This document shows positions 11,188 to 60,561 of a DNA stretch of 64,000 nt, in pieces; within the stretch, counting starts at the first letter, position 1; each line of letters starts with the position of its first letter. The stretch spans positions 16,757 to 80,756 of the forward strand of contig CALHRZ010000010.1 in assembly GCA_938038445.1 (NCBI GenBank), written 5' to 3'. Origin of the DNA: an uncultured bacterium (lineage in GTDB: Bacteria; Verrucomicrobiota; Kiritimatiellia; CAIKKV01). Below the pieces are notes generated by a model that did no database searches, had not been told where the DNA came from, and worked only from the letters and a program-made list of their open reading frames with translations. A program made the position numbers and the translations under genes.

Positions 11188-11259
11188 CGAGAGGATTCCT
11201 TGCACAGAGGGGCTTTTATTTATCAGTCTACCGAAAGAGGCGGCGGAAGTCAGGAACAA

Positions 11260-13700: not shown

Positions 13701-13932
13701 CAACAAAACGAGCCTCGGACGTGATATGCGCCCCGGAGGATGAAACCACCATAAAATTAGACAGAACCTCGATGGTGGTGGTAGGGTAGTAACGGGATAG
13801 TGTTTATCCTGATGGAACATGGATCAGGCCAGACAGTGAATCGGCAGCTGTGAAGACAATGTGTCGTGTATGTCTGACCCCGATGTTCCGTGCGGTGTTG
13901 GAGGTTTTTGGAACTCAATAGGGAGCACTTGC

Positions 13933-21305: not shown

Positions 21306-21338
21306 AACGGTGCGTTGAATAAAACGGAGGAAATAACA

Positions 21339-24242: not shown

Positions 24243-24343
24243 CTTTCTTGTTTATAGTGACCTATTATGCAACATTTCTTTAGTCCAGGGCAACGGGATG
24301 AGGATAGAGGAACGATGAGAAGAAGCGAAGAGGAGAAAAGGGA

Positions 24344-44800: not shown

Positions 44801-47800
44801 CCAGCATTATGATGGGCAGATGGATGAATTTCGCATTTCGGATCGTGCGCGTTCCGCCGATTGGATACGGGCGAACAGTCAGACCCAGAGCCGACCGGAT
44901 GAATTTGCCCGTAAAGGGAATGTCTTCACGGCTCGGGGGGGTGCGCTTGCGGAGGGGGTGTTAGCCGTGGGCAACCGTGCGGCCACCGGCGTACGCGACG
45001 GTAAGGCGACACTGAATGGAATCTTGGTTGGAACAGGCGGGGAAGCGACGGCGGGTTTGATGGTTTGCTGGGGGACGGCCGATGGGGGTACGGGGGCGAC
45101 GGGGGATTGGGAATATGCCGCTTCGCTGGGGACGGGGATTGAGCCTGCGTCATGGGTATCCTTTGAAGTTGACGGGTTGACGCCGGGTCAAAGTTATGCG
45201 TATCGGTTTTTTGCCACCAACGCAGCGGGTGAGGCGTGGGCGTCTCCGGCCGAATGGTTTGTGGTGCCTCGGGGGTGGTATGTGGCCACGACGGGTGATG
45301 GGAGCGACGGACAGAGTTGGGCCACGGCCTATACGAATATTCAGCAGGCGCTGGATGCGGCGCAACCGGGAGATGAAATCTTTCTCAAAGGGGAGCGGTT
45401 CAATATATGCAGTGATCCGACAGAAAACAACCAGCTCCTTGTCACCACGCCCAATCTCCGGATTCGCGGTGGGTACGAGGGGGTGGGGACGCCCGGGGCG
45501 AATGATCCTTCCGTATGGGTCACCATTATCACGCGCAGTGCGGGAACCAACCGGTTGATGCTCATTGATGGTGCCGACAATGTGGAGCTGTATGGACTGA
45601 TGTTTACCAATGGGTTACCCCGTGCACGTGCCAACCCTGTTCATCCTGATTCGAGTGGGGCGGGTCTCTTTATCCGAAATGCGAACGGAATCCGGATCGA
45701 ACGATGCGTCTTTCAACAGAATTGGGGCTACGGTCCGTTTGTGAACGGCGGCTATGTCTATGGCGGTGGAATTTGCGCCGTGACCTCCCGGTTGGAAATC
45801 GTTGCGAGTCGGTTTGTTTCGAACCGCGTCACCAGTTTGAGCTCGGCAAATATCCAGAATGGTTCTGGCGGCGGCATTGCCGTTGTGGATGGCGAATTGA
45901 CCATCGAGGATTCTGAAATTCTTGACAACTGGGTGGCTGGGGATTACCTGCATGGTTATGTGGATGGGGGAGGGCTTTCGATTCGGGGACTTTTTACAGC
46001 TCGGCGTGTTGTCGTGGCGCGAAACGATGTCGGAGAACCGTCGAATGATGCACGCCAATTCGGGGATGGAATTTACCTCTGGGGTGCAGGGAAGATTGAG
46101 AATGGGCTTTTCTTCAGGAATGGGCAATTCGCTCCGGGCACATCGGGAACATCGAACTTTGCGGTATATGTGGCCGGCGGGTATCTGACGATGGATCGGT
46201 GCACGGTAACCGATCACAAGCAGGCGGGTCTCTATCGAATCGGGGGGTCGGTTGTTATTTCCAATAGCATATTCTGGAACAACAACTTCTTGGATATATA
46301 CGAAAATGTGGCCGGAAACGTCATTCCCTTCTACACGCTGACCCAGCAGGGCTTTTACGATGGAGTTAATGGATGTTTTTCAGCGAATCCGTTGTTTGCC
46401 GATACCAACACCTTCCATCTGAAATCCGCCTATGGGACCTATACGGGGGGTTGGTTCAGCGGAGGCACGTGGGAGAATGCCGATGCGAACAGCCCGGCGA
46501 TTGATGCGGGCGATCCTTTATTCCGGGCCGACTTGGAGCCGTTCCCGAACGGGGGGCGGTTAAACTTGGGCGCATATGGCGGAACGATGGTAGCCTCCAA
46601 ATCGCCTCCGATTGCCGTCAGCAATGAACCGGCTTCGGGGGTGTCGCCGACGATGGCTCGGTTGAATGGGCGAATTGTGTCGGTGGGAGGCTACGGGACG
46701 GAAGCATGGTTTCTGTGGGATACAGAGGATCGAGGTGGCGATGTGGGGGCGTGGTCGAATCGTACCTTTGTTTCCACCTATGATGCGGCGGGTCCAGTGA
46801 CGTTGTTCTTGACGGGGCTAACACCGGAGACGGTTTATTATTATCGCTTGATGGCCACGAATTCGGCCGGTGGGTATGCTCTTGCCGAACCGTCCGAAAG
46901 CTTTGAAACCGTTCTTTCGAAACCTGAAGTGGCAAATCGAGGGGTGGAAAACGAAGCGGGCCCCACCGTGGTTTTGAAAGGCGAGGTGGTATTGACAGGT
47001 GGGGAAGACCCTGGGGTTTACGTCGTATGGGGTGAGGTTCCTGGTGGAAAGGCAACTGGGAGCTGGGAAAACGTGGTTTATGCCGGTTTTCAGGGAGGAA
47101 CGTTCAGCGTCGAGGTCGCGACGGCACCGGGACGCAGCTATTATTACACCTGTTATGCGACGAACAGTGGGGGAGAGGATTGGGCGTGGCCTCCCATTCA
47201 TTTTGGAGTCTCCAACTTATTCTATGTGTCAGCCGATGCGGTGGGAGAAGGCACAGGTCAGGGGTGGGTCAATGCTTTCAGCAACCTGCAAGATGCGCTC
47301 AATGCGGTGCTCTCGGACAAACCCACGGAAATCTATATCAAAGGAGGCGGCGGCAAGGAGCTGCAAGCGGCTGCGGAAGTCGGGTGGAATCGGTCCAACG
47401 TGCGGATTCTGGGCGGTTATGAAGGGGTAGGCTGGCCTGGGAATCGTGATCCGGAGGTTTGGCCGACCGTTTTGACTCGTCGCCCTGCCAACTTCATTCG
47501 GATCCTTTCGATACAGGGTGTTACGAACGGCTTACTGGATGGCGTGACCATACGCCATGGCAATCTGGCCGATTTCGGGGGTGGGATTCGGATTGTGAAT
47601 TCGACGAATCTAACGATTGCAAACTGCCGGATCGAGCGGAACAAGGGAGAGAATGCGACGGGAGGAACGACGGGGGGTGGCGGGGTGTATGCGGTCGATT
47701 CGTTCGGGGTGATTACGAACTGTTTGTTTGAGCGTAACGCGGTGACCAACACGGCTGGAGGCGGGTTTGCGTTGGGCGGCGGATTGATGATTTCGAATGG

Positions 47801-49619
47801 GCAGTGGACGATCCGCGACAGTCAGTTTATCTACAATACGGTGAATGCCAGCGGAAGCGGCTCGCGTGGGCGTGGTGCGGGCGTATATATTCATGGCGGC
47901 CAGCATGCGATCCGAAACTGCCTCTTTACCCAGAACTATCCTGCCGGAGCGGTGGATCAAGCGACGATGGCGCAAGGCGGGGCAGCCTACTTGACCAATA
48001 CCGTTGTTGCGTTCGATTACGTGACGGTGGCCGGCAATGTGCATGAGGGAATTCATGGCGCACAATTTGCCGAAATCCGGCATTCGATCCTGTGGCACAA
48101 TGGGAAAGACCTTGTCGGAACGCCGGGCGTATTGGCATACAACTCCATCAGTGACGGGGATGGGGTGGGGACCAATGGAAACGTGGTGACGGATCCTCGG
48201 TTTGAATATGGGTTCTATCTTGGTGATGGGAGTGGGTGTCGGGATGCGGCTTCGGAGACCGCTGCAGCGGCTGGGTTGGGCGGGATGTCGACCCGAGCGG
48301 ATGGGGCTTTGGATGAGGGTATGGCGGATCTTGGGTATCATGCGGCGCGTGGGATTGGGCCTTGGCACACTCTCTATGTGGCGACGGACGGCAATGACGC
48401 AAATGCCGGAACGAATTCTGCGGCCCCCTTGCGATCGCTGACAAGGGCTCTTGAAAAGGCGCTGATGGGGACGCGCGTCCTTGTTGCCGAGGGGCTCTAT
48501 GACAAAACGGTGGAAACATTCCCACTGATTGTGGACAAGGCGGGAATTCAACTTCTCGGTACGAATTTCGAAACCACAATTGTTTCCGCTTTGAATGCCA
48601 CGAGCCGGGTATTTCACGTCTTTGAGGCTCCGTGGGTTGTGTTGAGGGGAATGACCATAAGGGATGGCGTTCAGACGACTTATCGGTACTATCAGCAGGG
48701 CGGTGGGTTGTGGATTCGTCATTCGACTGATCTGCTGTTGGATCGCTGCGGGGTCGTCAACAATCTCAATCAGGGCGCAGTCAACGAGAATCGTTATGGG
48801 GGCGGTATCTATGCAGAAAATGCGGCGTTTGCTCGGGCGATCAACACTCGTTTTGTCAGCAACACCGTGTTTGCGAGTGCCGGACTATGGTCTGGTCTTG
48901 GGCATGGTGGGGGATTATACTTGTTGCGGGGAAGCTGGACCTTCGAGCGGTGTGTCTTTTCGGGCAATCTGGCCCGTGGGTACAATAATGAAGGTGCCTT
49001 GGGAGGCGCGGTGGCCATCTTGGGGGGAACCCATGAGTTTCGCAATTCCTTGATCGTCTCCAACAGTCTCGAATCCCGGGGTTATGGAGGGGATGGCGTG
49101 TATTCCCAGAACGCGACCACCCGCGTGGTAAACTGCACGGTTGCGGACAATGGGTGGCATCCGACGAAACCTGCGGGCTATTTTCGCGATGGATTGAGGC
49201 AAGTCGGAACGGGATACTTTGAAGTGCGCAACAGCATTGTGTATGGAAATCAGACGAACGATTTGGCGGGATTCACCACGAATGAGGTGGGCGAGTTGAT
49301 TAATGTTTACTACACGTGCATCGGAGACGGCCAAAACAACGGCGTGCAAGGATGCTTCCAGGCTGATCCGTTGTTTGCGGACCGTATTCATTATCATGAG
49401 CTATCCCGGAAAGGCTATTACAGCGGGGGCTTCTGGACAGGTGGGGAATGGCTCCTGGGCGGGGAAACAAGCTCTTGCATTGATGCGGGGGATCCCAATG
49501 ACGCGTATGAACATGAACCGGAACCCAACGGGAAGCGGATCAATCTCGGCGCATATGGCAACACGGAGACCGCCAGCAAGACGGCACGGCCGGGAGGAAC
49601 ACTCATCATTGTTCGGTAA
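38874..49619 (+). CDS. Giant (3581 aa) secreted multidomain surface/adhesin-like protein: PATR (autotransporter-associated beta-strand) repeats, Calx-beta, DUF2341-LamG, FN3 modules and three PbH1 beta-helix modules with choice-of-anchor-Q-like caps
   Basis: It has a signal peptide and a strong RBS (GGAGGG). Repeated GTLWL...NTFTG...GGTVRA units occupy the N-terminal ~1400 aa. The Calx-beta signature is VSDATVAETDSGEVELVFDVTL...DYTATSG. The LamG region is GEWNHVVVVVDRDAGRSAVYLNGEF. The repeated caps are DAGDP...NGGRLNLGAYGGT and CIDAGDPNDAYEHEPEPNGKRINLGAYGNT. Confidence 0.7.
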   Translation: MTFRCCSGRLFQLLGVLCSFFLSEVGWGQTWTFNVPERVVETGTNWLTGAGVVSKTGIGTLWLIPTGATNVYTGPTYVLDGVLRADEGRGLPFASTLYLNGQNVATRSTGVLETRGTFSRDVGTAAGQVYWNGTYGGFAARGGDLIVTLNGGAPLLWGAANGFNAKSLSLSSLTADGAVEIRNDIGLGANRAVFIELNTNNANNLAVLSGVISNGAASAFGLTVNGRGTLWLRNTNTFTGALTFGGGTVRAVDGVGLPTTALVTFNNTATHGILESSGSFTRTIGSGAGQISWQSSSVGGGFAAWGGPLNVSLNGGGVINWASGTDGFNGRVLVLNSFTANDRVILENSIELGAARTIYVYDNPFSENDAAEIRGELRGNNTGYNLTKSGPGILELSGFNSYRGNTFVGEGTLRVNGTIASNNYIQVNVPAMLSGTGRVISVAANGLLNYGTVSPQDGTAAGVLRYTGHGTLYTNSRLEVVLGPGTQVGRLEISGNVTIQTNFIVRFRDFGGSCKAEDELTVLTYGTNCMSFPTNSWSFDASLVQHSGRWNWTNAVLVHDPAGKRVYVTGLRVDPQTPSTWVTWNGGAGNWTDWNWDGPEPVPTIETEALVLSSDSDIQVTGEQEAHTLTLSNGVVQIESGGELESYYVEIGGGELNVEGVLKGFERVRVAPAGSLRISGTLQGADLIIEGTNVLESGADLRVRQWVFGADQTLGSNVSIAADRVSVPPALFLESGSVLSAGTWSVKGNVDVAASAQVAGQVRLATDGDMTIHGEAASGAVIVMDGGTLRASEATRVGGLDFTLGGVLIRDGATDPLQVAGPLIVQGVNLDLDGLKLDTSEAAIVATNGYWLSTTGDLNAASLRMVGPMLRVGGMVSISNVLSLEDVTITNPITGDTMVLVGEGRTRDQLVWLAASNSFRGKVQIERGTLRAIPGIGLPDDPGAGAFDFSADTAGWHALLEGNGVFARSIGEGSGDVFWSGHGGFAAWGGDLDVTLRGGDLITWGATNGFRGFNLYLSSTSATHVVTLHNPLLVNGTHILRVFDNPFTNSDYARITGTISMDTAGRILQKAEPGMVWLTGTNTFGGRLQIDDGVVRAIDGAGLPASATLYLNGSLPGTRACGVLESSGVFARNIGTGAGQVYWNNAGGFSAFGGPLEVLLNGGATISWGAANGFNSKILVSGGPTADEVVTLVNPVDLGANRSIYVWDNTNSPSDAFKMAGTLANGGAGHFGIWKYGDGVLWVTGTNTFTGGITNFNGVVRFGDGIGISASASMRLSGGNITPCVFETSGTLTRNLGTEAGQIHWGGSGGFAAWGGDLDLVFHGGSNIVWSALSGGFNGQVLHLGSRTANGRVDLKNDIALNGHRTIYVWDNPFSTSDYARISGTISNGPTAGSQFLRYGDGLLELTATNSYTGQTSLYDGDTRVMGVISGPVVVAVNHTNGPRTILSGIGRVGNLTVQANGIVAPGAGGVGTLTVNGNATIQRGAALEWEIGLDQQSDRIHIISNVTFNAEWVLRVRDGGGCPTKEDRYPVVTFGGFLASNTTTVLDFSLLDEEVWDVSEARVYYDPTNKQVGITGLGYTGPRVLVSDATVAETDSGEVELVFDVTLFDGFMGDVDLYFATADGTAEAGSDYTATSGVVTLTMDWPSTTIVVKVQGDTVPEWPSEYFLLSLAVTGGNARLVRSTAVGKIADDDGSARYKMPIVLSGYTGTETLINFPALVTFREGDGGFSYGQMGHTNGWDLRFLNAEETEELAYEIEQWNRAGTSYVWVRIPRLSGTNTLIWAVWGDATVTEPPVYSTNGTVWSEGFVTVHHFTPPVGGLYRDSGPRNFHGVNEGGRMASGAIGVGLDLNGPTNNVNMTGVASSEQSFTFEMWVRTPSLVLNRYLFDALNGRHLIAINYPTVGTIAYYDGTWRYFPGAQGLNNGEWNHVVVVVDRDAGRSAVYLNGEFVGTNTYNPRVLGGQARIGSQYNAPATQHYDGQMDEFRISDRARSADWIRANSQTQSRPDEFARKGNVFTARGGALAEGVLAVGNRAATGVRDGKATLNGILVGTGGEATAGLMVCWGTADGGTGATGDWEYAASLGTGIEPASWVSFEVDGLTPGQSYAYRFFATNAAGEAWASPAEWFVVPRGWYVATTGDGSDGQSWATAYTNIQQALDAAQPGDEIFLKGERFNICSDPTENNQLLVTTPNLRIRGGYEGVGTPGANDPSVWVTIITRSAGTNRLMLIDGADNVELYGLMFTNGLPRARANPVHPDSSGAGLFIRNANGIRIERCVFQQNWGYGPFVNGGYVYGGGICAVTSRLEIVASRFVSNRVTSLSSANIQNGSGGGIAVVDGELTIEDSEILDNWVAGDYLHGYVDGGGLSIRGLFTARRVVVARNDVGEPSNDARQFGDGIYLWGAGKIENGLFFRNGQFAPGTSGTSNFAVYVAGGYLTMDRCTVTDHKQAGLYRIGGSVVISNSIFWNNNFLDIYENVAGNVIPFYTLTQQGFYDGVNGCFSANPLFADTNTFHLKSAYGTYTGGWFSGGTWENADANSPAIDAGDPLFRADLEPFPNGGRLNLGAYGGTMVASKSPPIAVSNEPASGVSPTMARLNGRIVSVGGYGTEAWFLWDTEDRGGDVGAWSNRTFVSTYDAAGPVTLFLTGLTPETVYYYRLMATNSAGGYALAEPSESFETVLSKPEVANRGVENEAGPTVVLKGEVVLTGGEDPGVYVVWGEVPGGKATGSWENVVYAGFQGGTFSVEVATAPGRSYYYTCYATNSGGEDWAWPPIHFGVSNLFYVSADAVGEGTGQGWVNAFSNLQDALNAVLSDKPTEIYIKGGGGKELQAAAEVGWNRSNVRILGGYEGVGWPGNRDPEVWPTVLTRRPANFIRILSIQGVTNGLLDGVTIRHGNLADFGGGIRIVNSTNLTIANCRIERNKGENATGGTTGGGGVYAVDSFGVITNCLFERNAVTNTAGGGFALGGGLMISNGQWTIRDSQFIYNTVNASGSGSRGRGAGVYIHGGQHAIRNCLFTQNYPAGAVDQATMAQGGAAYLTNTVVAFDYVTVAGNVHEGIHGAQFAEIRHSILWHNGKDLVGTPGVLAYNSISDGDGVGTNGNVVTDPRFEYGFYLGDGSGCRDAASETAAAAGLGGMSTRADGALDEGMADLGYHAARGIGPWHTLYVATDGNDANAGTNSAAPLRSLTRALEKALMGTRVLVAEGLYDKTVETFPLIVDKAGIQLLGTNFETTIVSALNATSRVFHVFEAPWVVLRGMTIRDGVQTTYRYYQQGGGLWIRHSTDLLLDRCGVVNNLNQGAVNENRYGGGIYAENAAFARAINTRFVSNTVFASAGLWSGLGHGGGLYLLRGSWTFERCVFSGNLARGYNNEGALGGAVAILGGTHEFRNSLIVSNSLESRGYGGDGVYSQNATTRVVNCTVADNGWHPTKPAGYFRDGLRQVGTGYFEVRNSIVYGNQTNDLAGFTTNEVGELINVYYTCIGDGQNNGVQGCFQADPLFADRIHYHELSRKGYYSGGFWTGGEWLLGGETSSCIDAGDPNDAYEHEPEPNGKRINLGAYGNTETASKTARPGGTLIIVR

Positions 49620-49622
49620 ATC

Positions 49623-50993
49623 ATGAGAAAAATCGCACGGCTCAATCAGGAATGGAAAAAAATCTCCAAAGTTATTCAGGCATGGGAAGGGGCGATCGAC
49701 CCTCTTTTCATGACCCCTACGGAGGAATTTAAACGCCGGCAGACGGCTGTTTGGAAATCATTGGAGCAAGGGGGATACGACGCCGGGTTTGTCTTTTCGG
49801 ACGAACATTACTGCGGCGACGTGCCGTATCTGGGAGGCAATACCAATATTTCCATTGAGCAAGTAGCGGGGCTGATCGGGTCGACGGGTTTTCATTTGAT
49901 TGCCGGTTTGGAAGGGGGATATGTCGCCGAACAGCTTGCCTACCGTTCCGGTTGCACGGTTCATAAGGCCGAGCTGTTGCAACTTGCCGACGAAAAATAT
50001 CCCGTTGCAGCGGAAAAGTTGGGCGATATTTTGCAAGCGGCGGCCGGAAAACCGTTGCCAGCGATACGGAAGATTGGGTTGCTATCGCCCCGGCAGGTGA
50101 TTCCGTCCAGTCTCATCGAGCATTTGCATCATCTCCTCGGGCCGGAGCGTGTCGAGGATGCGCAGGAGCGGTATTTTCGGATCAAATACGAAAAATCGGA
50201 TGTTGAGATGCGATTGATCGCCGATGCCTGCAAGGTGGCCGATGCCATGATGCGGGGAATGTTGGCGGTTTTGAGGCCGGGCATGTTGGAAACGGAGGTC
50301 GCGGCCTGGGCGTCATTCCTAGGGAAAGCATTGGGCTGTGAGGATTGCGGCTTTAAGGTCATGGTGGGGGCCAATGAAGCGAACCGGACTCTGATTGGGA
50401 AGGCCCTTAATCGCCCGATTCAGAAAGGGGATTGGGTCCATTTGGGCGTGGCGCCGACGAGAGACGGGCTCAACTCGTGCATTCGCCGGTCGGTTATTGC
50501 GGTCGAATCGCCGGAAGAGGTCACATCGGATCAACGATATTGGTTCCGGTTCATCGAGCAAGCCTATCGCGTGGGGCATCGAAAATATGTGGAAGTGGCA
50601 AAAAACAATCTACCGGCCAGGCTTCAAGAGCAAGCGCTGGTGGATTTTTTTGCGTCGAAAGCGGAGGAAGTTTCCCGGCGGGTGGGAAAACCTATTCCCC
50701 TCGCGCAACTGAAGCCGTATACGGGAACCCACAATGCGGGGTATACGGAATGCCAGGAGTTTTTTGGCGCCATCACCTTGGAGTCCGAAGAGCCGCTTGG
50801 CCGTCAGATTGTCACCATGTTGGATGTCGCACTTCGGGGGTTTGGAAGCAAGTGGCATGAGGTGGTCATTCCGGGTTTTGACTACATCGTCATTGAAAAC
50901 ACGTTGGGGAAATACGATTCGACGATCAAAACCCTCACCCAGATGCCGTTGAACGTGCAGCGGTTGGTGGGGAATGTGGACGAATTGAAATAG
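49623..50993 (+). CDS. Hypothetical protein (possible creatinase/M24-peptidase-like fold), co-transcribed with the giant gene
   Basis: It starts 3 nt after the giant gene stop. The weak resemblance to Xaa-Pro aminopeptidase/creatinase architecture is not a confident assignment. Confidence 0.3.
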   Translation: MRKIARLNQEWKKISKVIQAWEGAIDPLFMTPTEEFKRRQTAVWKSLEQGGYDAGFVFSDEHYCGDVPYLGGNTNISIEQVAGLIGSTGFHLIAGLEGGYVAEQLAYRSGCTVHKAELLQLADEKYPVAAEKLGDILQAAAGKPLPAIRKIGLLSPRQVIPSSLIEHLHHLLGPERVEDAQERYFRIKYEKSDVEMRLIADACKVADAMMRGMLAVLRPGMLETEVAAWASFLGKALGCEDCGFKVMVGANEANRTLIGKALNRPIQKGDWVHLGVAPTRDGLNSCIRRSVIAVESPEEVTSDQRYWFRFIEQAYRVGHRKYVEVAKNNLPARLQEQALVDFFASKAEEVSRRVGKPIPLAQLKPYTGTHNAGYTECQEFFGAITLESEEPLGRQIVTMLDVALRGFGSKWHEVVIPGFDYIVIENTLGKYDSTIKTLTQMPLNVQRLVGNVDELK

Positions 50994-51459: not shown

Positions 51460-54180
51460 ATGGATGAGACGCCCCGGCTTTTTGTGGTGGATGTGATGCC
51501 TTTTCTGTATCGGGGGTACTTTGTCTTTCTGCGAAACCCCCGGATTACCTCGACCGGACTGAACACTTCTGCGTTGTATGGATTTGCCTCGAGTCTGGTC
51601 TCGATCCTCGAGGACCAGAAACCCACCCATGTAGCCTTGGCGCTTGATTCGGAAGGACCCTCATTCCGGCATCAGGTGTATGCGCCGTATAAAGCCCAAC
51701 GACAGAAGGCGCCGGAGGATCTCAAGGCGGCCATTCCCATGGCAATTGAGTTGGCCCGGGCGCTACGGATTCCTATTTTGCAGGTTGAGGGTTATGAGGC
51801 GGACGATCTGATGGGGATGTTAGCTCGCAAAGGACGGGACGCGGGGTGGAGGGTGTATTTGGTCACACCGGACAAGGACGCGGCTCAATTGGTGGAGGAA
51901 GGGGTTTTTCTCGTTCGTCCGGGCAAAAAAGGAGATGCGTTGGAGATTTTGGGTCCGGAAGAGGTGGCTTCTCGTTGGGGGCTTAAGCATCCCAGGCAAA
52001 TGGTAGACTATTTGGCGTTAGCGGGCGATACGTCCGACAATCTGCCTGGAATACCGGGCGTAGGCGAAAAGACGGCCAGAATCCTTTTGGAAAAATATGG
52101 CTCGCTGGATAACATTTTAGCTCATGCAGGAGAGATCACCGGCCGACTGGCGGAGCGTGTGCGGGAAGGACGCGAATCGGCGCTCCTTAGCCGAAGACTG
52201 GCCACCATTCGGGCCGATGTGCCCCTGGCCGTTGCGTTGGACGACCTGAGGCGGAGGGAGCCGGACCGGAATGCCTTGCAACAGGTTCTCAGTAAATATG
52301 AGTTGCAACAGGTTGGGCGGCGGTTGTTGGGGGAACTGTTTGAGATCAAGCCTGCGGCAAGGCGGGAATCGCTTCAAAGCGTTCCCCACGAGTATCGGCT
52401 GGCGGATACGGAGGAGGAACGCCATCGCCTTTTGGAAGCGCTACGGCAGGCGCCGGTGTGGTCGTTCGACACCGAAACCACGGGACTCGACCCTTGGAAG
52501 GCGAGGCTGGTTGGAGTATCGTTTGCCGTAGCGCCGGGGCGTGCCTGGTATCTCCCGGTTCCATCGGGGAAAGAGGAGTCCCTTCGCTGGTTGGCACCCT
52601 TTCAACCGCTCTTCGGCGATTCCACCCGCGTGCGCGTTGCGCATAATGCAAAATTCGATCTCACCATTCTTCGCCGCTATGGGCTCCTGCTGAAGGGGCG
52701 TGTGCACGACACGATGCTTGCGCATTATGTGCTCGACATGGGCGATCGTCATTCGTTGGACCATCTTGCGCAGACGTACTTGAATTATGAACCCATCCCG
52801 ATTCGGGTTTTGATCGGAGAGCGTGGGGCGGAGCAAGGAAACATGGGGGATCTCGATCCGCGCCAGATTGTGGATTATGCGGCGGAGGATGCCGATCTGA
52901 CTCTCCGGCTGCATGAAATCCTGCGCCCCGAAGTATTGCAGAAAGGCGCGCTGCCGGCCTTGGAAGAGTGCGAGGAGCCGTTGGTCGAGGTTCTGATCGC
53001 GATGGAGGAGACGGGGGTACGGATTGATCCCGGGGTTCTTCGGGCATACGGCCGCGAGTTGAACCGCGAACTGCTCGAATTGGAGCAGAAAATCGTCGAA
53101 GCCGCTGGAACGGCCTTTAACGTCAATTCCCCCAAGCAACTCGGTGAAGTGCTTTTTGATCGGCTGAAGCTGGATCCTCATGCGGGACTTACGGCGACTG
53201 GGCAGCAGTATGCGACGAGTGAAGAGGTGTTGCAGAAACTCGTGGACCGTCATCCCATTGTCCCCCTTATCCTCGAACACCGGACCTGCAGCAAGCTTAA
53301 GTCTACCTATGTGGACAAACTGCCGGAATGCATTGATTCCGCCACGGGGCGTGTCCATACACGGTTCAGCCAGACGCTGACGGAGACCGGCCGGCTTTCC
53401 TCTTCCGATCCCAACCTCCAAAATATTCCTGTGCGGACGGAACGAGGCAAGCGCATTCGGCAAGCCTTTGTGGCGCGCGACGACCGTCACGTGTTGCTTT
53501 CGGCCGACTATTCCCAGATCGAGCTTCGGGTGATGGCGGCCCTCAGTGGCGATCCGGCGATGCGGGAGGCGTTTGCGCGCGGGGCGGATATTCATGTGGA
53601 GACGGCGGCGCGGGTCTATGGCGTGATGCCGTCCCTGGTGACGCCTGAGATGCGAAACCGCTGCAAGATGGTGAATTTCGGAATCATTTATGGGATCTCG
53701 GCCTTTGGACTTTCCCAGCGGCTGGGCATTTCCCGCAAGCAGGCGCAGGAGCTGATCGACGCCTATTTTACCCAATATCCTGGAGTGAAAGCATATATGG
53801 AGAAAACCATTGCCGAGGCGCGGCGGCTGGGGTATGTGCAAACCGTCTTGGGCCGTCGGCGTTATCTAAGGGACATTCAGTCGCGCAACGCCACGGTGAG
53901 GCAGGCGGCGGAGCGGAATGCGATCAACACCCCAATTCAGGGTACGGCGGCCGATTTGATCAAGCTGGCGATGATTCGCATTCATCGGTTGTTTCTGGAG
54001 AAGGGGTGGAAGGCCCGAATGGTGTTGCAGATTCACGACGAGTTGCTGTTTGATGTTCCGAGGGAGGAAGTGGAGGAGGTGCGGGATGTGGTCCGGAAAT
54101 GCATGCTTGAGGCGATGGATCTTGGGGTTCCGCTGGCGGTTGAACTGGGTGTGGGGTGCAATTGGTTAGAGGCCCACTGA
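51460..54180 (+). CDS. polA: DNA polymerase I
   Basis: The 5'-3' exonuclease N-terminus, the 3'-5' exo region and the polymerase motifs (RQAFVARDDRHVLLSADYSQIELRVMA; KMVNFGIIYGISAFGL; QIHDELLFDV) are present. Confidence 0.9.
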   Translation: MDETPRLFVVDVMPFLYRGYFVFLRNPRITSTGLNTSALYGFASSLVSILEDQKPTHVALALDSEGPSFRHQVYAPYKAQRQKAPEDLKAAIPMAIELARALRIPILQVEGYEADDLMGMLARKGRDAGWRVYLVTPDKDAAQLVEEGVFLVRPGKKGDALEILGPEEVASRWGLKHPRQMVDYLALAGDTSDNLPGIPGVGEKTARILLEKYGSLDNILAHAGEITGRLAERVREGRESALLSRRLATIRADVPLAVALDDLRRREPDRNALQQVLSKYELQQVGRRLLGELFEIKPAARRESLQSVPHEYRLADTEEERHRLLEALRQAPVWSFDTETTGLDPWKARLVGVSFAVAPGRAWYLPVPSGKEESLRWLAPFQPLFGDSTRVRVAHNAKFDLTILRRYGLLLKGRVHDTMLAHYVLDMGDRHSLDHLAQTYLNYEPIPIRVLIGERGAEQGNMGDLDPRQIVDYAAEDADLTLRLHEILRPEVLQKGALPALEECEEPLVEVLIAMEETGVRIDPGVLRAYGRELNRELLELEQKIVEAAGTAFNVNSPKQLGEVLFDRLKLDPHAGLTATGQQYATSEEVLQKLVDRHPIVPLILEHRTCSKLKSTYVDKLPECIDSATGRVHTRFSQTLTETGRLSSSDPNLQNIPVRTERGKRIRQAFVARDDRHVLLSADYSQIELRVMAALSGDPAMREAFARGADIHVETAARVYGVMPSLVTPEMRNRCKMVNFGIIYGISAFGLSQRLGISRKQAQELIDAYFTQYPGVKAYMEKTIAEARRLGYVQTVLGRRRYLRDIQSRNATVRQAAERNAINTPIQGTAADLIKLAMIRIHRLFLEKGWKARMVLQIHDELLFDVPREEVEEVRDVVRKCMLEAMDLGVPLAVELGVGCNWLEAH

Positions 54181-54373
54181 GCGTGTGGGAGTTGCCCTGA
54201 ATTCCGCGAAGGAAGCGCGGCACGGCCGATAATAATTTTCTCGTGAAACCGGATTGGCCCCCCAATGGATCTTGACGTTCTGAACCAAAAGAGGCAGCAT
54301 AACCATTTTGCACGAGGTTGTTGTGGCTGTTTTTAAACCGGCCAATCGAATTTGGAATCCGACATACGAATGC

Positions 54374-55645
54374 ATGCCGCGCCCTGCACTTGACGCGCTT
54401 CAAGTCGAACGGCTGCGGGACCGGCTTGAGCGCGTCTGCCGTTCGGTACCCTGGTATGCGGAAAAGATGCGGTCGGCGGGGATCCGTCCCGCTTCGATCC
54501 GCTCGCTTGAGGATGTTCGACGACTTCCTTTCACGACGAAGGACGATTTACGGAAGAGCTATCCGTATGGGGCATTTGCCGTGCCGATGCGCGAAATCGT
54601 TCGCATCCATGCGTCGACCGGCACCACGGGTAAACCGACAGTCGTCGGTTATACGCGGCGGGACATGGAGACGTGGATGGAAGTGGTCGCGCGGTTTCTC
54701 ATTTCCGGCGGGTTGACGGAAGACGACATTGTGCAGATCGCATTTGGGTATGGGCTTTTCACGGGCGGGTTTGGCCTTCACTATGGAGTGGAAAAAATCG
54801 GTGCGGCCGTCATTCCCGCCTCTTCCGGCAACACGGAACGGCAGATTCTCTTGCTGCGCGATTTCGGCACCACCGCTTTGGTGTGCACCCCGACTTATGC
54901 CGTCCACCTGGGTGAGGAGCTTCAGAAGACGGGAGAAGAGTTATCCCGTTTGCGCCTTCGGTTGGGTTTTTTTGGCGGGGAGTTCTGGACAAATGAAATC
55001 AGGGAAAAGATCCAAGCATTGCTCGGTATCTTCGCGACCGACAACTATGGTCTTTCAGAGGTCATGGGGCCTGGGGTCAGCGGGGAGTGCGTGGAGCAGC
55101 GGGGCATGCATGTGCAAGAGGATCATTTTTTGTTTGAGATTGTACATCCAGGGACATTGGAGCCTGTTCCGGACGGCGAAACAGGAGAGGTGGTTCTCAC
55201 GACCCTCACCAAGGAGGGGATGCCGGTCATACGGTATCGGACGCGCGATATCACCCGCGTCATTCCCGAGCCGTGTCCTTGTGGGCGGACGACCCGCCGG
55301 ATGGAGAAAGTGACGGGGCGGACGGACGACATGCTGATCATTCGGGGGGTCAACATTTTTCCCTCGCAAGTGGAGGAGGTTTTACTGCGGTTTCAAGGGA
55401 CGGCGCCCCACTATTTACTGGTGGCCTCGCGTGAGGGGGCGCTGGACCGTCTCGAAGTCAAGGTGGAGATGTCCGAAGCTCTTTTCACGGACGAAATGAA
55501 AAAGCTGACGGAGGTCAAGGAAGCACTTCAACATCGACTCGACAGTGCTCTGGGCATACGGGTTAAGCTGACGCTGGTTGAGCCTGGTTCCCTGGAGCGA
55601 TTTATCGGAAAAGCGAAACGGGTGATTGACACCCGGCGATTCTAA
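54374..55645 (+). CDS. Phenylacetate-CoA ligase family adenylating enzyme (PaaK / coenzyme F390 synthetase-like)
   Basis: The ATG at 54374 gives [21 protein letters not shown]...; the motifs TKDDLR, SGTTGKPT and the PaaK-type C-terminal domain are present. Confidence 0.7.
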
Positions 55646-55654
55646 TATCCGATC

Positions 55655-56512
55655 ATGAGCGAGATCGCACAGATTCAGAAGCAACATGGCATTGTGGGCC
55701 GGGAACGGGAGATGCGTCTTGCGTTGGCGATTCTGCAATGTGGGCGGCATCTGTTGCTCGAGGGTCCTGTGGGGGTGGGTAAAACGACGGTTGCGCTGGC
55801 GGTATGTGCCCATCTGGGTCGGCGCGTTTGGCGGGTGGATGGGGACGACCGGTTCACGGAGCAAAAACTGACCGGGTGGTTTGATCCGCCCTTGGTGCTC
55901 AAGGCGGGGTATGGGGATGAATCCTTTACGCCGGGACCTCTGCTCGAAGCGATGGAGGTCGGGGGCGTTTTGTTCATCAATGAGTTGAACCGGATGCCGG
56001 AGTCAGTTCAGAACGTTCTTCTCCCCGCGTTGGATGAAGGGGTTCTTCAGATTCCTCACCTCGGAGAGCGCCGAGCGCGCCCCGGCTTTCAGGTCGTGGC
56101 AACTCAGAATCCGATTGAATATGTGGCCACCGGACATCTTTCCGAAGCGTTGCGGGATCGATTTGAGCATGTGGGGTTATCCTATCAGAGCGAGGAAGAG
56201 GAGATTGCGATTGTTCGGCGCCATGTTCCGGATGCGCCGCTCGAGCTTGCAGAGGAGGCGGTTCGCTTGACGCGCGCGACACGGCAGCATACGGCCTTTC
56301 GACGGGGCGCTTCGGTGCGGGCGGCCATTGCCATCGCGCAGATCGCGATGGCAATTGGGGGCCCTTCCGCCTTGTCGCAGGCGGCGGAAGCTGCTCTGAC
56401 GACTCGGGTGGAGGTGAACGAGACGGACGGATCGGGGTTAAGCGGCGTTATTCAGGCGATTCTGGCTGAAAAAAAAAAGAGCTGTTCGAATTACGCCCCG
56501 TCCCTGATCTGA
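55655..56512 (+). CDS. MoxR/CbbQ-NorQ-type AAA+ ATPase
   Basis: Walker A LLEGPVGVGKTT, Walker B VLFINELNR and the short (~285 aa) CbbQ/NirQ/NorQ-like size fit. It starts 9 nt after the paaK-like gene. Confidence 0.75.
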   Translation: MSEIAQIQKQHGIVGREREMRLALAILQCGRHLLLEGPVGVGKTTVALAVCAHLGRRVWRVDGDDRFTEQKLTGWFDPPLVLKAGYGDESFTPGPLLEAMEVGGVLFINELNRMPESVQNVLLPALDEGVLQIPHLGERRARPGFQVVATQNPIEYVATGHLSEALRDRFEHVGLSYQSEEEEIAIVRRHVPDAPLELAEEAVRLTRATRQHTAFRRGASVRAAIAIAQIAMAIGGPSALSQAAEAALTTRVEVNETDGSGLSGVIQAILAEKKKSCSNYAPSLI

Positions 56513-56607
56513 GTTTTTCGACCTCCCAATCCTTCCCGCAACTTCCATGCAAGCCGGAGGAACGTCGCCGGAGGGTCTGTCAGCATTATGGCCAGAACGA
56601 AACGCGA

Positions 56608-57390
56608 TTGGACGGCTGGAAACTGGCGGAGACCGTTTCCGAACTCGGGTATGAAACGACAAATCCAGCCATCCGGGAGGAAGCGGTTCGGCTGGCGGCC
56701 TGGGCGGTGCTACGCCGGGCATGCCGTTTGGTCGGGCCGTTAAGGCTCAGCCGACGCAAGCGGCGGGAGGTGATGCGGGAATCGTTTCGGGGGGAGCTTG
56801 AAGTCGAGTTGACGTTGGACAATATATTGGGTAAAGAGATGCCTGAACCTCACGATTGGATGGCCGTATTGCCGGAGGAGCATGCACGGGCGGTCTGTCT
56901 GATGATGGATGTGTCCCTCAGCATGTCGGGACGTAATCTCGCATTGGCGGCATTGGCGTGCGCCGTACTGGCGCTCAAGATTCCCCCGGGCGACCTGGCG
57001 TTGGTGGCCTTTGACAGCGTGGCGCGTCGGTTGGTGGCGTTGGGGGAAAAGGTTTCGGCAGAGGAAGTGATTCGGCGAATATTGCGGTTGCCGGCTCGTG
57101 GTTATACGAATCTTAAGGATGCGTTACAGACCGGAGGAAAAGAATTGAGCCGTGCCCGGAGCGGAAAGCGTGTCGGCGTGTTGGTGACCGATGGGGTTGC
57201 GACGGTTGGGGAAGATCCTCTGTCGGAGACAAGGCGTTTTCCGCGGCTTCATGTCTTGATGACGGAAGATGGGAAAACGAACGAAGTTCTATGCCGGAAG
57301 ATGGCAAGCGGGGGACAAGGGCAACTGCTCCGGATCCGTCGGTTGGAAGAGATGCCGGCACGGTTATTGGAACTGGCGAATCGGCTATGA
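56608..57390 (+). CDS. von Willebrand factor A (vWA) domain protein, partner of the MoxR ATPase
   Basis: The MIDAS motif DVSLSMSG lies in a VWA fold (...VLVTDGVAT...). A start further upstream via a non-ATG codon is possible. Confidence 0.6.
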   Translation: MDGWKLAETVSELGYETTNPAIREEAVRLAAWAVLRRACRLVGPLRLSRRKRREVMRESFRGELEVELTLDNILGKEMPEPHDWMAVLPEEHARAVCLMMDVSLSMSGRNLALAALACAVLALKIPPGDLALVAFDSVARRLVALGEKVSAEEVIRRILRLPARGYTNLKDALQTGGKELSRARSGKRVGVLVTDGVATVGEDPLSETRRFPRLHVLMTEDGKTNEVLCRKMASGGQGQLLRIRRLEEMPARLLELANRL

Positions 57391-57406
57391 AAGGACGGGC
57401 GTTTCG

Positions 57407-58393
57407 ATGATGACAGCGCGAGAGATCATTTTGGCGAATGCGAAATCTGACGGCGCGGACCGGCCGGGGTTCGACTTTGATGGCGGGCGGCGCCGAGACA
57501 TTCTGTGGGCGGGGCTGTCACCCTCTCGGCGTTGGAAAGAGCGGCGATGGAGAGAAGGAGGGTTCGAGTATTATGACGATGCCTGGGGAAACATCTGGCA
57601 TCGGAAACCGGATATGTCTGCGACGGGGGAGGTTTGGAAACCGGTGTTGGAGGATTGGGGAAAGCTGGATGCGCTCGTTCTGCCCGATTTCGATCATTCA
57701 GAACGATATGAGGATATGGCCAAGGCATTCCGAACAGATCCGGACGACCGGTTTCACATGGCCTTTTTGCCGATGTGGATATTTGCCGTCAGCCGTTATT
57801 TGAGGAAGATGGAAATTTATCTCACCGATTTGATCGAGTATCCGGAGGAGATTGACGCCTTACACGGGAAAGTGGCCGATTTGGCCGAACGGGTAATCCG
57901 GCAATGTGCGGAGGCGGGAGCGCATGGGGTGTTTTTCTGCGAGGATTGGGGAGTTCAGGATCGGCCGTTGGTATCGCCGGCCATGTTTCGAGAACGGTTC
58001 GCACCGCATTACCGGCGGCTGACGGCCGCGGCTCATGATCGCGGGCTTCTCGTGTTCATGCATTCGTGTGGGAACAATACCCAGCTGCTGGAGGATTTTG
58101 CCGATACTGGTTTGGACTGTTTTCAATTTGATCAGCCGGCGGTTTATGATATGCCCGCTCTGGCGGCTTGGATGCGAAAACGGAAGATCGGACTTCATGC
58201 CCCGCTGGATATTCAACGGTTTCTCCCTACGGGCGACCGGGCGCTGATCGTACGCGAGGCCCGGCGCATGGTCGAACTATTTCGCGGCGGATTGATCCTC
58301 AAGAACTACCCTGATCTGAAGGGAATCGGGGTTCAACCCGAATGGGACCAGTGGGCCTATGAAGAATTTCTGTCGGCCGCCGATCTGTCCTAA
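57407..58393 (+). CDS. Uroporphyrinogen decarboxylase (URO-D) family protein, second paralog
   Basis: The start was trimmed to ATG 57407 (MMTAREIILANAKSDGADRP...). The URO-D-like length and motifs (FMHSCGNNTQLLEDFADTGLDCFQFDQP) match. It starts 16 nt after the vWA gene. Confidence 0.5.
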   Translation: MMTAREIILANAKSDGADRPGFDFDGGRRRDILWAGLSPSRRWKERRWREGGFEYYDDAWGNIWHRKPDMSATGEVWKPVLEDWGKLDALVLPDFDHSERYEDMAKAFRTDPDDRFHMAFLPMWIFAVSRYLRKMEIYLTDLIEYPEEIDALHGKVADLAERVIRQCAEAGAHGVFFCEDWGVQDRPLVSPAMFRERFAPHYRRLTAAAHDRGLLVFMHSCGNNTQLLEDFADTGLDCFQFDQPAVYDMPALAAWMRKRKIGLHAPLDIQRFLPTGDRALIVREARRMVELFRGGLILKNYPDLKGIGVQPEWDQWAYEEFLSAADLS

Positions 58394-58401
58394 AAACACG
58401 A

Positions 58402-58428
58402 GGCAAAAGTTTCTTGCTTTTTTCCGAT
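58402..58428 (+). terminator. Weak candidate intrinsic terminator after the URO-D-like gene
   Basis: A short GCAA/TTGC stem is followed by a TTTTTT run (ggcaaaagtttcttgcttttttcc). Low confidence. Confidence 0.2.
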
Positions 58429-58467
58429 TCGATTATTATCATTTCATTATAACTAGGAGGGATCCAC

Positions 58468-60561
58468 ATGAAAAAGAAGGTGTTCGTCATTCTGCTTTTT
58501 TCGGGTCTGATTGAAATCTGCGTGGGGGGATCGGTCTGGGACGGAGGAGGGGCTGATGCTTCTTGGGGGACGCCGGAGAACTGGAATTCTGATACGTTGC
58601 CGGCTTTTGATGGCACGGAAACCATTACGTTTTCCGGATTGTCAAGCGGGACCAACTTGACGCTGGACGGCGACCGGCGGATTCGTTCCATTACCCTTCC
58701 AACCGGAAACGACATTTCCATTAGGTCGGGCACGCCGTCGGGAAGTCGGTTGGAAATCCAGGGGGGCAGCATCTCTCTTTCCGCTAACACCCGAAGGCAT
58801 GCTTTTGATTGTCCGATTTTACTTTTGGGAAACGTTGCCGTCACAAACGCCGGCGCCTCCGGAGCATTTATTCGATTTCAGGGGCCCATTTTGGATGAAG
58901 GGGAGGGGTACGGGCTGAGCGTGGCGGGATTGCGAAATACAACGCTCAGTGCCAGCAACGATTTTCGGGGACCTGTCCTCTTGATGGCAGGCGTTCTCTA
59001 TGTGGCGGACGATTTTGCCCTCGGGCATGGGACATTGATCTACAGAGGCGGTGCCCTTTTCGCGAGCGGGAACCGCACAGTGACCAACAGCTTGGATATC
59101 GAAGCCACTCCATTCAATTTTGGAAATAATGGGGGCTCTGGGATGTATTTTACAGCCCCCGGCATTGTCTCGCTGAAGACCAATGTAGAATTCAAGTTAA
59201 CCCAGGCGACAGGCGCCGGATCTGAATTGCGATTTATGAACGGCATTCGGGAAGATATTCCCGGTTGTTCCATGACCCATAACCATAATCGAACCATGTG
59301 GCTTTATGGCACGAGCACCTTTACCGGACCGGTTATTCTTCAATCCGGCACCCTACGTTTTGGCGGCACGTTGATGGCCTCTTCGGTCCAGCAAAGCGGT
59401 GGAACCATTGAGATTGCTGCGCATAATCCGCTGGGCACGGGAACGTTATTTTTGGCGGGCGGGCGGTTTTCATCTGCGGGGACGCGATGGCAATTGGACA
59501 ACGACGCGTTTTGGAGCGGGACTCATGGCATTATGGTCAATGGCGGGTCCCACATTGACTTTAATCTCGACGGAGGGGCTGCGATTCTGACGGATCATAT
59601 GGTGTTTGATCATCGAGGGACCTCCTCCGATCCGGCAACATCCCCTAAATTCCATCGGGGCTTTCAGGAGACCAACGGGTCGTTTGGGATCACATGGAAA
59701 GGCAGTCCGTCGCGATACATCCGGTTGGCCGGCACCAGCACCTATACGGGACCGACCATTGTCACCGACCTGATTGTTCGGGTTGAAGCCGAGAATGCGC
59801 TTCCCACGAATACGGCACTGTCGGTTTTCAGCACGGTCCAAATGCTGGGTAATGCGACCACGATCGGAAGCCTGCAAGGCAATGGAGCGGTGGATACGGG
59901 GGGAGGGCTTTTGACCCTTGGGGGCGACGGAACCGCGTCGTATGAAGGAAGAATCATGGGCGCAGGGGGACGGCTGCTTAAGGTCGGGTCGGGCGTGCAG
60001 CGGTTGGCATGGACCAATCTTCAGAGCTATACCGGATGGACGCGCATTGAAGGCGGTATTCTTCGGTTGGACGATGGTTTGACGTCTCAAATCAGTCTTG
60101 TGGAAGTTGTGGGCGGCTGTCTGGGGGGGACCGGTCTCGTCAACCGTCCTGTACGAGTTTATGGCGGCGGACGGTTGGGCGCCCATGGGGTGACGGTGCC
60201 GGAAGGAGGAATGCTGAGAATTCCACGCACGGTGACGCTGGAGGACGAGGCGGCCCTGGTTTGGACAGTCGCGGCCGATAGTCAGGATCGGATTGCGGTT
60301 TCCGATCTCGTTCAGCAAGGGGCCGTGACCCTTTATTTGCGTAATTACGGACGTGCGATTCAACCGGAAGACACTTTCGAAGTTGTTCCCTACACCGGTT
60401 CGCTCACGGGGTTCGAACCGGGACAATGGACGTTGGATACTTCCGAGTCGCCCATTCCGATTTCCGTTCGGTCGGCGCAAATCGAGAATACAGGTGCTGC
60501 GATTGTAATATCTGGGCTTCGATCGCCGGTTGCTCCTGGAACGGTCATACAGATTCGCTAA
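58468..60561 (+). CDS. Secreted autotransporter-associated beta-strand (PATR) repeat protein
   Basis: It has a signal peptide (MKKKVFVILLFSGLIEICVGG) and a strong RBS (AGGAGGG). Repeated GTL...GGxL...G units are present. It ends ...VAPGTVIQIR. Confidence 0.5.
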   Translation: MKKKVFVILLFSGLIEICVGGSVWDGGGADASWGTPENWNSDTLPAFDGTETITFSGLSSGTNLTLDGDRRIRSITLPTGNDISIRSGTPSGSRLEIQGGSISLSANTRRHAFDCPILLLGNVAVTNAGASGAFIRFQGPILDEGEGYGLSVAGLRNTTLSASNDFRGPVLLMAGVLYVADDFALGHGTLIYRGGALFASGNRTVTNSLDIEATPFNFGNNGGSGMYFTAPGIVSLKTNVEFKLTQATGAGSELRFMNGIREDIPGCSMTHNHNRTMWLYGTSTFTGPVILQSGTLRFGGTLMASSVQQSGGTIEIAAHNPLGTGTLFLAGGRFSSAGTRWQLDNDAFWSGTHGIMVNGGSHIDFNLDGGAAILTDHMVFDHRGTSSDPATSPKFHRGFQETNGSFGITWKGSPSRYIRLAGTSTYTGPTIVTDLIVRVEAENALPTNTALSVFSTVQMLGNATTIGSLQGNGAVDTGGGLLTLGGDGTASYEGRIMGAGGRLLKVGSGVQRLAWTNLQSYTGWTRIEGGILRLDDGLTSQISLVEVVGGCLGGTGLVNRPVRVYGGGRLGAHGVTVPEGGMLRIPRTVTLEDEAALVWTVAADSQDRIAVSDLVQQGAVTLYLRNYGRAIQPEDTFEVVPYTGSLTGFEPGQWTLDTSESPIPISVRSAQIENTGAAIVISGLRSPVAPGTVIQIR

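Follow-up and report, generated by a model that had tools for sequence, protein, structure and literature searches.

The window analysed here is a stretch of 64,000 nucleotides (nt) from an uncultured bacterium of the Kiritimatiellia (Verrucomicrobiota; contig CALHRZ010000010.1). It contains a cluster of four co-oriented open reading frames (ORFs) on the + strand (54308/54374-55645, 55655-56512, 56608-57390 and 57407-58393, the third counted from its TTG), which encode a phenylacetate-CoA-ligase-like (PaaK-like) protein, a MoxR/AAA_5-type AAA+ ATPase, a protein with a von Willebrand factor A (vWA) domain and a protein of the URO-D/MtaA fold. Comparison with related loci indicates that the second and third ORFs belong to one gene, joined by a conserved -1 recoding site, and that the locus probably makes both a 285-amino-acid (aa) ATPase and an ATPase-vWA fusion of ~578 aa. 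Judging from these sequence comparisons, we hold it highly likely that the recoding of the two ORFs is real and functional. The ORF geometry, the presence of the site throughout the family, the existence of natural fusions, an anomaly in codon usage and the hairpins downstream of many sites were computed directly. The locus is described accordingly as three functional units: a PaaK-like ligase, a recoded AAA+-vWA gene and a URO-D/MtaA-fold enzyme.

The junction between the ATPase and vWA reading frames

In a first-pass annotation of this DNA, the ATPase and the vWA protein were taken for two genes separated by a gap of ~95 nt, and the site that joins them was missed. The ATPase ORF (55655-56512, + strand, 285 aa) ends with the stop codon TGA at 56510-56512. 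A run of ten A (A10, 56469-56478), followed by a G at 56479, is located 34 nt before the end of this stop codon, and the same type of site is found at the same place in relatives. The codons of the ATPase frame (0 frame) across the site are GAA AAA AAA AAG; the slippery heptamer A_AAA_AAG is located at 56473-56479, with A_AAA_AAA directly 5' of it, and the 0-frame stop follows 11 codons after the site both in the window and in its close relative L002. The vWA frame, which is -1 relative to that of the ATPase, has an in-frame TGA at 56467-56469 and is then stop-free from 56470 to 57390 (+ strand), thus overlapping the final 43 nt of the ATPase ORF. This -1-frame ORF encodes a linker and a vWA domain (Pfam VWA_2/VWA/VWA_CoxE) with the metal-ion-dependent adhesion site (MIDAS) DxSxS..T..D.

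No ATG, GTG or TTG occurs in the vWA frame before the TTG at 56608, which is the sole canonical start codon. A conserved N-terminal helix (ALAxRYG..LDGW in the family, QHYGQ..LDGW in the window) is encoded 5' of this TTG, and the protein similarity runs upstream of it in L002 and in 25 homologs. The automatic gene call starts the vWA protein at a later ATG, giving 205 aa and cutting into conserved residues. Since the frame is open from the A run and no canonical start precedes the conserved helix, the supposed ~95-nt gap is not intergenic but -1-frame coding sequence.

The conceptual fusion of 578 aa consists of ATPase residues 1 to ~274, followed by KKELFELRPVPDL.. and then by the vWA domain. 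The sequence spanning the junction in the predicted fusion is ..AILAEKKKELFELRPVPDL.. and the predicted junction peptide is ..AILAEKKKELFELRPVPDLSF.. at the same place. Across the family, the conceptual fusions measure 573-640 aa.

Conservation of the probable recoding site

Related loci were collected by a pattern search with one genome per species, which gave 44 loci from Kiritimatiellia/Verrucomicrobiota, Thermoleophilia/Actinomycetes, Spirochaetota and Eubacteriales. The junction was compared in these loci and in other fetched contigs where the ATPase and vWA matches could be framed. The vWA frame was -1 relative to the ATPase frame in all 38 cleanly framed genome loci, which belong to several phyla. 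An in-frame X_XXY_YYZ heptamer was likewise present in 38 of 38, either as A_AAA_AAA/G/C within a run of seven, nine or ten A (A7, A9 or A10) or as C_CCA_AAA; the latter was found at six high-GC loci, four of which have GGAGG 6-9 nt 5' of the site. The 0-frame stop is located ~1-3 codons past the site in nearly all of these loci. Five additional loci with messy frames had the same run and stop, with indels elsewhere.

The sequence between site and vWA domain looks coding. The linker from the site to the conserved DGW motif was stop-free in 44 of 45 loci, its GC content by codon position was 0.81/0.59/0.85, and no canonical start preceded the conserved helix in 15 of the 45. Moreover, in loci with a GC content above 0.63 the lysine codons outside the site are 28 AAA vs 327 AAG, and the site itself always reads AAA AAA or CCA AAA.

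The site can also be recognized at the protein level. Among the 120 closest ATPase clusters, which are independent sequences of 63% identity or more, all but one (119) end in a tail of the form KK(x0-11) or PK(x1-4), and such tails are what a slippery site with an immediate stop would produce. More than 2,000 sequence clusters make up the wider ATPase family, and uncultured organisms account for most of them.

A second, independent set of 80 metagenome loci was obtained through more distant vWA relatives, down to ~26% identity to the window vWA; a first alignment of very distant vWA relatives had been too diverse for locus retrieval. Among the 59 loci of this set that held the junction, 45 had the same arrangement and seven were in-frame fusions. 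In total, more than 100 loci, spread over five or more bacterial phyla, represent the arrangement and are usually annotated as two genes. At one of the seven exceptions among the 59 distant loci (L067, ~2391-2409) an A9 run and a nearby stop were present, and the vWA frame was +1, not -1; an assembly error or a different kind of shift are both possible there.

Site types and the possible mechanism of the shift

A slippery heptamer followed by a spacer and a hairpin is the classical signal for -1 programmed ribosomal frameshifting (PRF). Hairpins were sought as the best 36-nt fold starting 3-9 nt after the site, which was ranked against all windows of the same gene. At the 17 loci with A7 sites, a hairpin of -20 to -26 kcal/mol was found in every case, within the top 0-6% of windows; the hairpin sequences differ between lineages, with the same spacing. 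Four of the nine loci with C_CCA_AAA sites ranked in the top 10%. The A9/A10 sites, including that of the window, ranked there at only one of 17 loci (median percentile 0.54), and the best downstream fold at the window site was -4.7 kcal/mol, at the 96th percentile of its gene. Minimum-free-energy z-scores against shuffled sequences were weak overall (mean z -0.57), the informative test being the within-gene percentile by site type.

Homopolymers of about nine or more A or T, the length taken here as compatible with slippage, are present as A10 in the window and L002 and as A9 in other Verrucomicrobiota and in Spirochaetota loci. As runs of this kind without a stimulator match the transcriptional slippage known from Thermus dnaX ('A9 GCC TGA'), the sequences suggest that the A9/A10 sites may use transcriptional slippage. 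In the window, one A added to the mRNA or a -1 slip on A_AAA_AAG (56473-56479) gives the same product.

The dnaX tau/gamma system is comparable in other respects too. Its slippery motifs are identical (A_AAA_AAG with -1 PRF in E. coli; A9 slippage in Thermus thermophilus), and two products with a common N-terminus are made in a ratio set by recoding. However, the shift in E. coli dnaX yields the shorter product and here the longer one, and the protein families are unrelated.

Naturally fused proteins

With the vWA profile, a full HMMER search yielded 193 representative clusters at E<=1e-30. Among the top 150 representatives, ~25 (~15% of relatives) carry this ATPase at the N-terminus (37-68% identity) and form a single ORF of 563-668 aa. 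In several of them, P0177, P0181 and P0188 included, the linker has no K-run, one stands alone in a contig of 1.4 Mb, and a protein of a Thermoplasmata archaeon, under the name 'AAA family ATPase', belongs to another cluster. Additionally, in two loci an in-frame fused paralog is located directly upstream of the frameshifted copy (L036, 6345-8255; L043, 6055-8094). The argument from natural fusions is based on the fused representatives without a K-run and on these two paralogs. Two further candidates were rejected: the 586-aa single ORF of L041, where an A11 run with a hidden 'C TAA' stop corresponds to the usual A10 plus one base, and L050, which has an indel within the ATPase gene.

Identity of the ATPase-vWA module

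The module is of the MoxR/AAA_5 type, NorQ/Midasin-like by its sequence matches, and is not a chelatase D subunit. The ATPase scores 87.8 bits with AAA_5 (Pfam cutoff 22), which places it among the MoxR-class AAA+ domains. GPVGVGKT (Walker A), TQNP (sensor 1) and RDRF (arginine motif) are invariant in 34 family members. The canonical Walker B form hhhhDE is absent from the ATPase; an equally invariant hhhhNE takes its place in the same 34 members, as LF(I)NELNR with Asn for Asp (LFINELNR at residues ~105-112 in the window). Its best relatives of solved structure are the Midasin AAA modules (E 1.9e-40), NorQ (7.5e-14), MoxR 2R44 (1e-09) and CbbQ. The MIDAS residues of the vWA protein (DxSxS, T and D) do not vary among 26 sequences, and the profile matched the uncharacterized structure 3RAG and NorD (6.5e-4), the latter being the best match with a named function. 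The ATPase ORF is located directly 5' of the vWA ORF in every locus with upstream sequence. The pairing of a MoxR ATPase with a vWA protein, as read in the first-pass annotation, thus stands.

Among known systems, the NorQ/NorD, CbbQ/CbbO and CoxD/CoxE pairs resemble the module in having an AAA_5 hexamer-type ATPase, a MIDAS-containing vWA partner and a conserved C-terminal tail of the vWA protein, and NorQ/NorD are the closest solved bacterial relatives of both parts. In contrast to the module, these pairs are separate polypeptides (PMC13036017) without recoding, and the NorQ-type Walker B has DE where the window family has NE. The named pairs adjoin their clients norCB, cbbLS and coxMSL, none of which, nor any gvp client gene, was found within the 64-kb window. 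No NCBIfam equivalog threshold was reached: the ATPase came closest to GvpN (the best score, 97 vs 266.8 bits) and to MadB-type AAA proteins, in each case well short of the cutoff.

Midasin/Rea1 shares the order of AAA_5 ring, linker and single C-terminal MIDAS, and the fused ORF of L041 matches it at E 9.7e-52. However, Midasin is one chain of ~4,700-4,900 residues with six fused AAA modules, and here the ring would be built of separate short and long subunits.

The nearest precedent for the recoding is fs-chlD, in which -1 frameshifting yields the small and the medium subunit of Mg/Co chelatases, validated with up to 63% efficiency (PMC3711429). As in the module, standard decoding gives an AAA-only product, and AAA-linker-vWA arises from a -1 shift at an A-rich site that is often followed by a hairpin; annotation shows the gene as an adjacent pair, and other species have natural fusions. 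Unlike fs-chlD, the ATPase here is AAA_5/NorQ/Midasin-like rather than ChlI-like, and cobN/chlH is not nearby, no such large-subunit gene being found within the 64-kb window. A ChlD/BchD-type chelatase D subunit was ruled out by the model scores, although the -1 site between AAA and vWA is shared: the conceptual fusion scored 28.2 bits on TIGR02031 (BchD-ChlD, cutoff 499.6) and 48.6 bits on TIGR02442 (putative cobaltochelatase, cutoff 779). PF01078 (Mg_chelatase) matched only the Walker A stretch of the ATPase (30 bits), and a PDB search with the ATPase returned no ChlI, BchI or ChlD match even at E<=1. Orphan fs-chlD copies without a large subunit and without an assigned function have been reported in Spirochaeta thermophila and Brevefilum fermentans (PMC9227772). 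These copies (S. thermophila NC_017583.1:1673962; B. fermentans NZ_LT859958.1, around 191466) may be distant members of the family described here. The literature on frameshifting together with MoxR or vWA gave nothing relevant beyond fs-chlD, and that on MoxR with vWA and URO-D, or on the MadB ATPase, gave nothing relevant.

Gene neighbourhoods and the client of the module

The four-gene array with its PaaK-like, MoxR, vWA and URO-D domains, proposed in the first-pass annotation, was confirmed by the ORF coordinates and Pfam, as were the gaps of 9 nt between the PaaK-like and ATPase genes (55645 to 55655) and of 16 nt between the vWA stop and the URO-D-like gene (57390 to 57407). The order PaaK-ATPase-vWA-URO-D was found in three flank contexts: with polA upstream (the window and L002), in a contig with other flanks, and in L061, where an ACT-domain gene precedes PaaK. 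Two further loci (L012 and L013) agree with it as far as their contigs extend. The expectation that this neighbourhood would be conserved elsewhere held within these contexts and not beyond them: the vWA protein is at least 62% identical to that of the window in all four-gene loci, so that the unit is limited to a narrow Kiritimatiellia-like clade. At 63% identity, L011 has no PaaK upstream.

Elsewhere the module is accompanied by different genes, in Actinomycetota/Thermoleophilia, Spirochaetota, other Verrucomicrobiota, Eubacteriales and Thermoplasmata. The Actinomycete loci have TauE-DUF1634 upstream and Band_7 downstream, and a cytidylyltransferase gene lies upstream in Spirochaetes. PaaK and the URO-D-like protein had been put forward as the only candidate clients; that claim does not hold for a module which is self-contained and has other neighbours in most lineages. 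Among the loci compared, no client conserved across the family was found.

Several recurrent neighbours were observed. A gene for a HEAT-repeat protein (~180 aa) adjoins the module in 23 loci of one subgroup (for example L052, 3407-3937, and L097, 694-1404), mostly directly downstream of vWA and upstream of it in L033, and is often followed by a FakA-like gene (Dak2/DegV); the HEAT-repeat protein could be an adaptor. In five Spirochaetota loci (L010, L020, L029, L053 and L079) an ADP-forming acyl-CoA synthetase gene (ATP-grasp_5/CoA_binding_2/Succ_CoA_lig) is located downstream of the module. With PaaK, this makes an acyl-CoA theme near the module that is recurring but loose. A nitroreductase gene is located directly downstream in L010 (10704-11501), and genes of the same family are also found near the module in L007 and in the P0009 contig. 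In L007, a gene for a B12-binding corrinoid protein (10899-11531, - strand) is convergent to vWA, with DUF3786 and nitroreductase genes upstream, which is a single case.

The alternative that survives best concerns this neighbourhood. The genes around the module may have no common function, the client being encoded outside the cluster, the PaaK-like protein being a housekeeping aryl-acetate ligase and the URO-D-like protein a paralog from a sugar context; we give this only slightly less than an even chance. The changing neighbours listed above fit it, including the stand-alone fused gene, as does the missing PaaK in L011. URO-D homologs 55-59% identical to that of the window stand alone in sugar-type contexts in Armatimonadota and Limnochordia, and the window holds a second URO-D-family ORF (23153-24823, - strand, 556 aa, URO-D domain at residues 411-551). 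Against it stand the short gaps of 9 and 16 nt and an order kept in three flank contexts; PaaK homologs also occur within ~10 kb downstream of the module in eight Actinomycete loci, and L009, L014 and L018 have URO-D-family genes in its vicinity (convergent or a few kb off). As a conserved client, these last genes were down-weighted, given the second URO-D ORF of the window and the lack of any URO-D gene in ~35 Actinomycete/Spirochaete loci; the second ORF indicates that URO-D paralogs are frequent in the genome, and loose proximity then carries little weight. That the URO-D-like enzyme or, less likely, the PaaK-like ligase is the client has a roughly even chance. The URO-D-like protein is a reasonable lineage-specific client candidate, no more.

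The URO-D-like protein

The URO-D/MtaA-fold protein (57407-58393, + strand, 328 aa), a putative Zn-dependent enzyme, scores 61.9 bits with Pfam URO-D and has 685 homologs. An alignment of 34 sequences, with a mean column identity of 67%, keeps H219-S-C221-G-x-N and D242 throughout and has C238 in 90% or more of the sequences. The H-x-C motif with an acidic residue 21 positions on presumably corresponds to the Zn site of MtaA and MetE, and by this resemblance the protein probably binds Zn. MtaA has a distal Cys ligand that this protein lacks, and C238 may take its place. A PDB sequence search with the protein gave no match. Its AlphaFold2 model (predicted local distance difference test score 95) has an extra N-terminal beta-rich segment, and the best folds were MtaA (4AY7/4AY8) and UROD, with a template modelling score of ~0.6 at 14-18% identity. 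Both NCBIfam thresholds were missed (HemE, 17 vs 303 bits; MtaA/CmuA, 41 vs 235 bits). An earlier description of the protein as URO-D/MtaA-like is thus upheld for the fold and the invariant H-x-C, and not for membership of MtaA/CmuA, whose cutoffs are far above its score. It shares its fold with the MtaA/MT2 methylcobamide:CoM methyltransferases, but no corrinoid protein gene is adjacent to it in the window.

Proposed mechanism and alternative explanations

We propose that standard decoding would produce the 285-aa ATPase ending at 56510-56512, and that a fraction of expression would move to the -1 frame on the A10 run (56469-56478), either through a slip of the ribosome on A_AAA_AAG or through RNA polymerase adding one A. 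The shifted reading would cross a linker of ~45 residues into the vWA domain with its MIDAS, giving the fusion of ~578 aa. The short and long products may co-assemble into one hexameric ring with a sub-stoichiometric, tethered MIDAS, a ring resembling BchI/BchD, NorQ6-NorD or the layout of six AAA modules and one MIDAS in Midasin. Such a ring would remodel a client or load metal into it, with the ratio of the ring's subunits determined by how efficiently the shift occurs. In the Kiritimatiellia-like clade the URO-D-like enzyme would be the most plausible client, the PaaK-like ligase less so.

Taken with all its parts, the reading is a tentative one, to which we give a little under half of the probability: recoding would be family-wide, by PRF with a hairpin in high-GC lineages and by slippage in others, and would build a 'mini-midasin' with a fixed minority of MIDAS subunits; the family would be an undescribed one distinct from ChlD, with a URO-D-fold Zn enzyme as its client in the Kiritimatiellia clade. 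Several points weigh against the proposed mechanism. That shifting occurs, that the products form a hetero-hexamer and which client they serve are all inferred, the shift from comparative sequence. The window site has no downstream structure, and either the ribosomal or the transcriptional route could operate there. In the distant set, seven of the 59 loci fit neither the -1 arrangement nor the in-frame fusion. The apparent fusions of L041 and L050 proved artefactual or ambiguous. Some in-frame ATG, GTG or TTG is present in the linker at 30 of 45 loci, where independent initiation could add free vWA protein. Finally, most lineages have neither PaaK nor URO-D beside the module, and the assignment of a client is weak.

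The start codons in the linker also bear on a rival explanation, in which the cluster consists of four ordinary genes; a ~95-nt spacer would precede the vWA gene, whose product would be initiated independently and act as a separate partner of the MoxR ATPase. Gene callers do annotate separate vWA proteins (205-311 aa), and the NorQ/NorD, CbbQ/CbbO and CoxD/CoxE precedents are separate polypeptides. However, the window has no ATG, GTG or TTG before the conserved vWA helix, the called vWA N-termini vary in position, and natural ATPase-vWA fusions exist. Independent initiation would also leave unexplained the constant -1 offset, the in-frame heptamer, the prompt 0-frame stop, the otherwise disfavoured AAA codons and the hairpins. 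We therefore consider four ordinary genes improbable.

Much less probable still is a sequencing or assembly error in the homopolymer, or a pseudogenising mutation, in what is truly a single fused gene. Homopolymers are error-prone, some loci from long-read metagenome-assembled genomes do carry indels (L022, L038, L050, L053 and L054), and L041 reads A11, in frame. Nevertheless, short-read assemblies made independently from various samples and phyla (NODE_/k141 contigs, JGI, Logan) have the same -1 arrangement, the non-homopolymer C_CCA_AAA is found at six framed loci plus others, and the 0-frame stop is kept just 3' of the site, where random errors would scatter over frames and positions.

The first-pass annotation had also offered a vWA-MoxR 'ternary' conflict or defence system, the least probable alternative of all: a weak bpMoxR Pfam match of the ATPase (E 5.9e-4) and precomputed PF20030 matches for some homologs point to it, but bpMoxR (PF20030) scores 19.4 bits vs a cutoff of 27, no third VMAP/effector component is present, PADLOC gave nothing for vWA, PaaK and URO-D and only weak generic AAA matches for the ATPase, and the flanks are of housekeeping type (polA, serA).

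MoxR-vWA pairs are widespread and their mechanism is poorly understood, the control of the ratio of ring to vWA being an open point. If the proposed recoding is true, it would provide built-in ratio control and co-translational assembly from one message, and would extend the chlD precedent to another AAA+ clade. In current annotation the gene is split and the vWA protein clipped by late starts chosen arbitrarily, so that structure predictions and constructs made from such calls would be wrong. The linkage to PaaK and URO-D is a lineage-specific arrangement and not a defining feature of the module.

Organization of the cluster and other genes of the window

The PaaK-like protein is an aryl-acetate/acyl-CoA ligase of the phenylacetate-CoA ligase family (54323-55645, + strand; Pfam AMP-binding and AMP-binding_C_2). 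With 534.7 bits on TIGR02155 (PaaK), below the equivalog cutoff of 646.3, it is a member at the level of the family only. Its candidate starts are TTG 54308, GTG 54323 and ATG 54374, and the choice between them is uncertain; the start of the gene caller is the equivalent of GTG 54323 and gives 440 aa, and a start at ATG 54374 cuts off the conserved IWNPTYEC stretch.

The four genes are likely to be co-transcribed. A scan for promoters and terminators between them found no such site, with counts at or below the shuffle expectation, which makes the scan uninformative. An Rfam scan of 53900-58700 gave no match at E<=1, and hence no riboswitch that would point to a ligand.

The cluster is preceded in the window by polA and by genes for an M24 peptidase and a 3,581-aa PATR/Calx-beta protein, and is followed by genes for a PATR-repeat protein and serA. 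The giant ORF (38874-49619, + strand), with matches to PATR, Calx-beta, Laminin_G_3 and Beta_helix/DUF1565, is probably surface adhesin-like, and the M24 peptidase-family gene (49623-50993) follows it. The PATR/autotransporter-repeat protein between the URO-D-like gene and serA (58468-60561, + strand, 697 aa) is missing from the syntenic L002 (10988-11062), indicating that a segment was inserted or deleted at the cluster's 3' edge. Other ORFs of the window encode an HGD-D protein (2-hydroxyacyl-CoA dehydratase D-component-like; 6864-8522, - strand), a sulfatase (11260-12819, - strand), a DUF2961 protein (13861-15033, + strand) and a weakly GH20-like protein (21315-23162, + strand). The gene content of the window fits an anaerobic polysaccharide-degrading organism of the Kiritimatiellia type.

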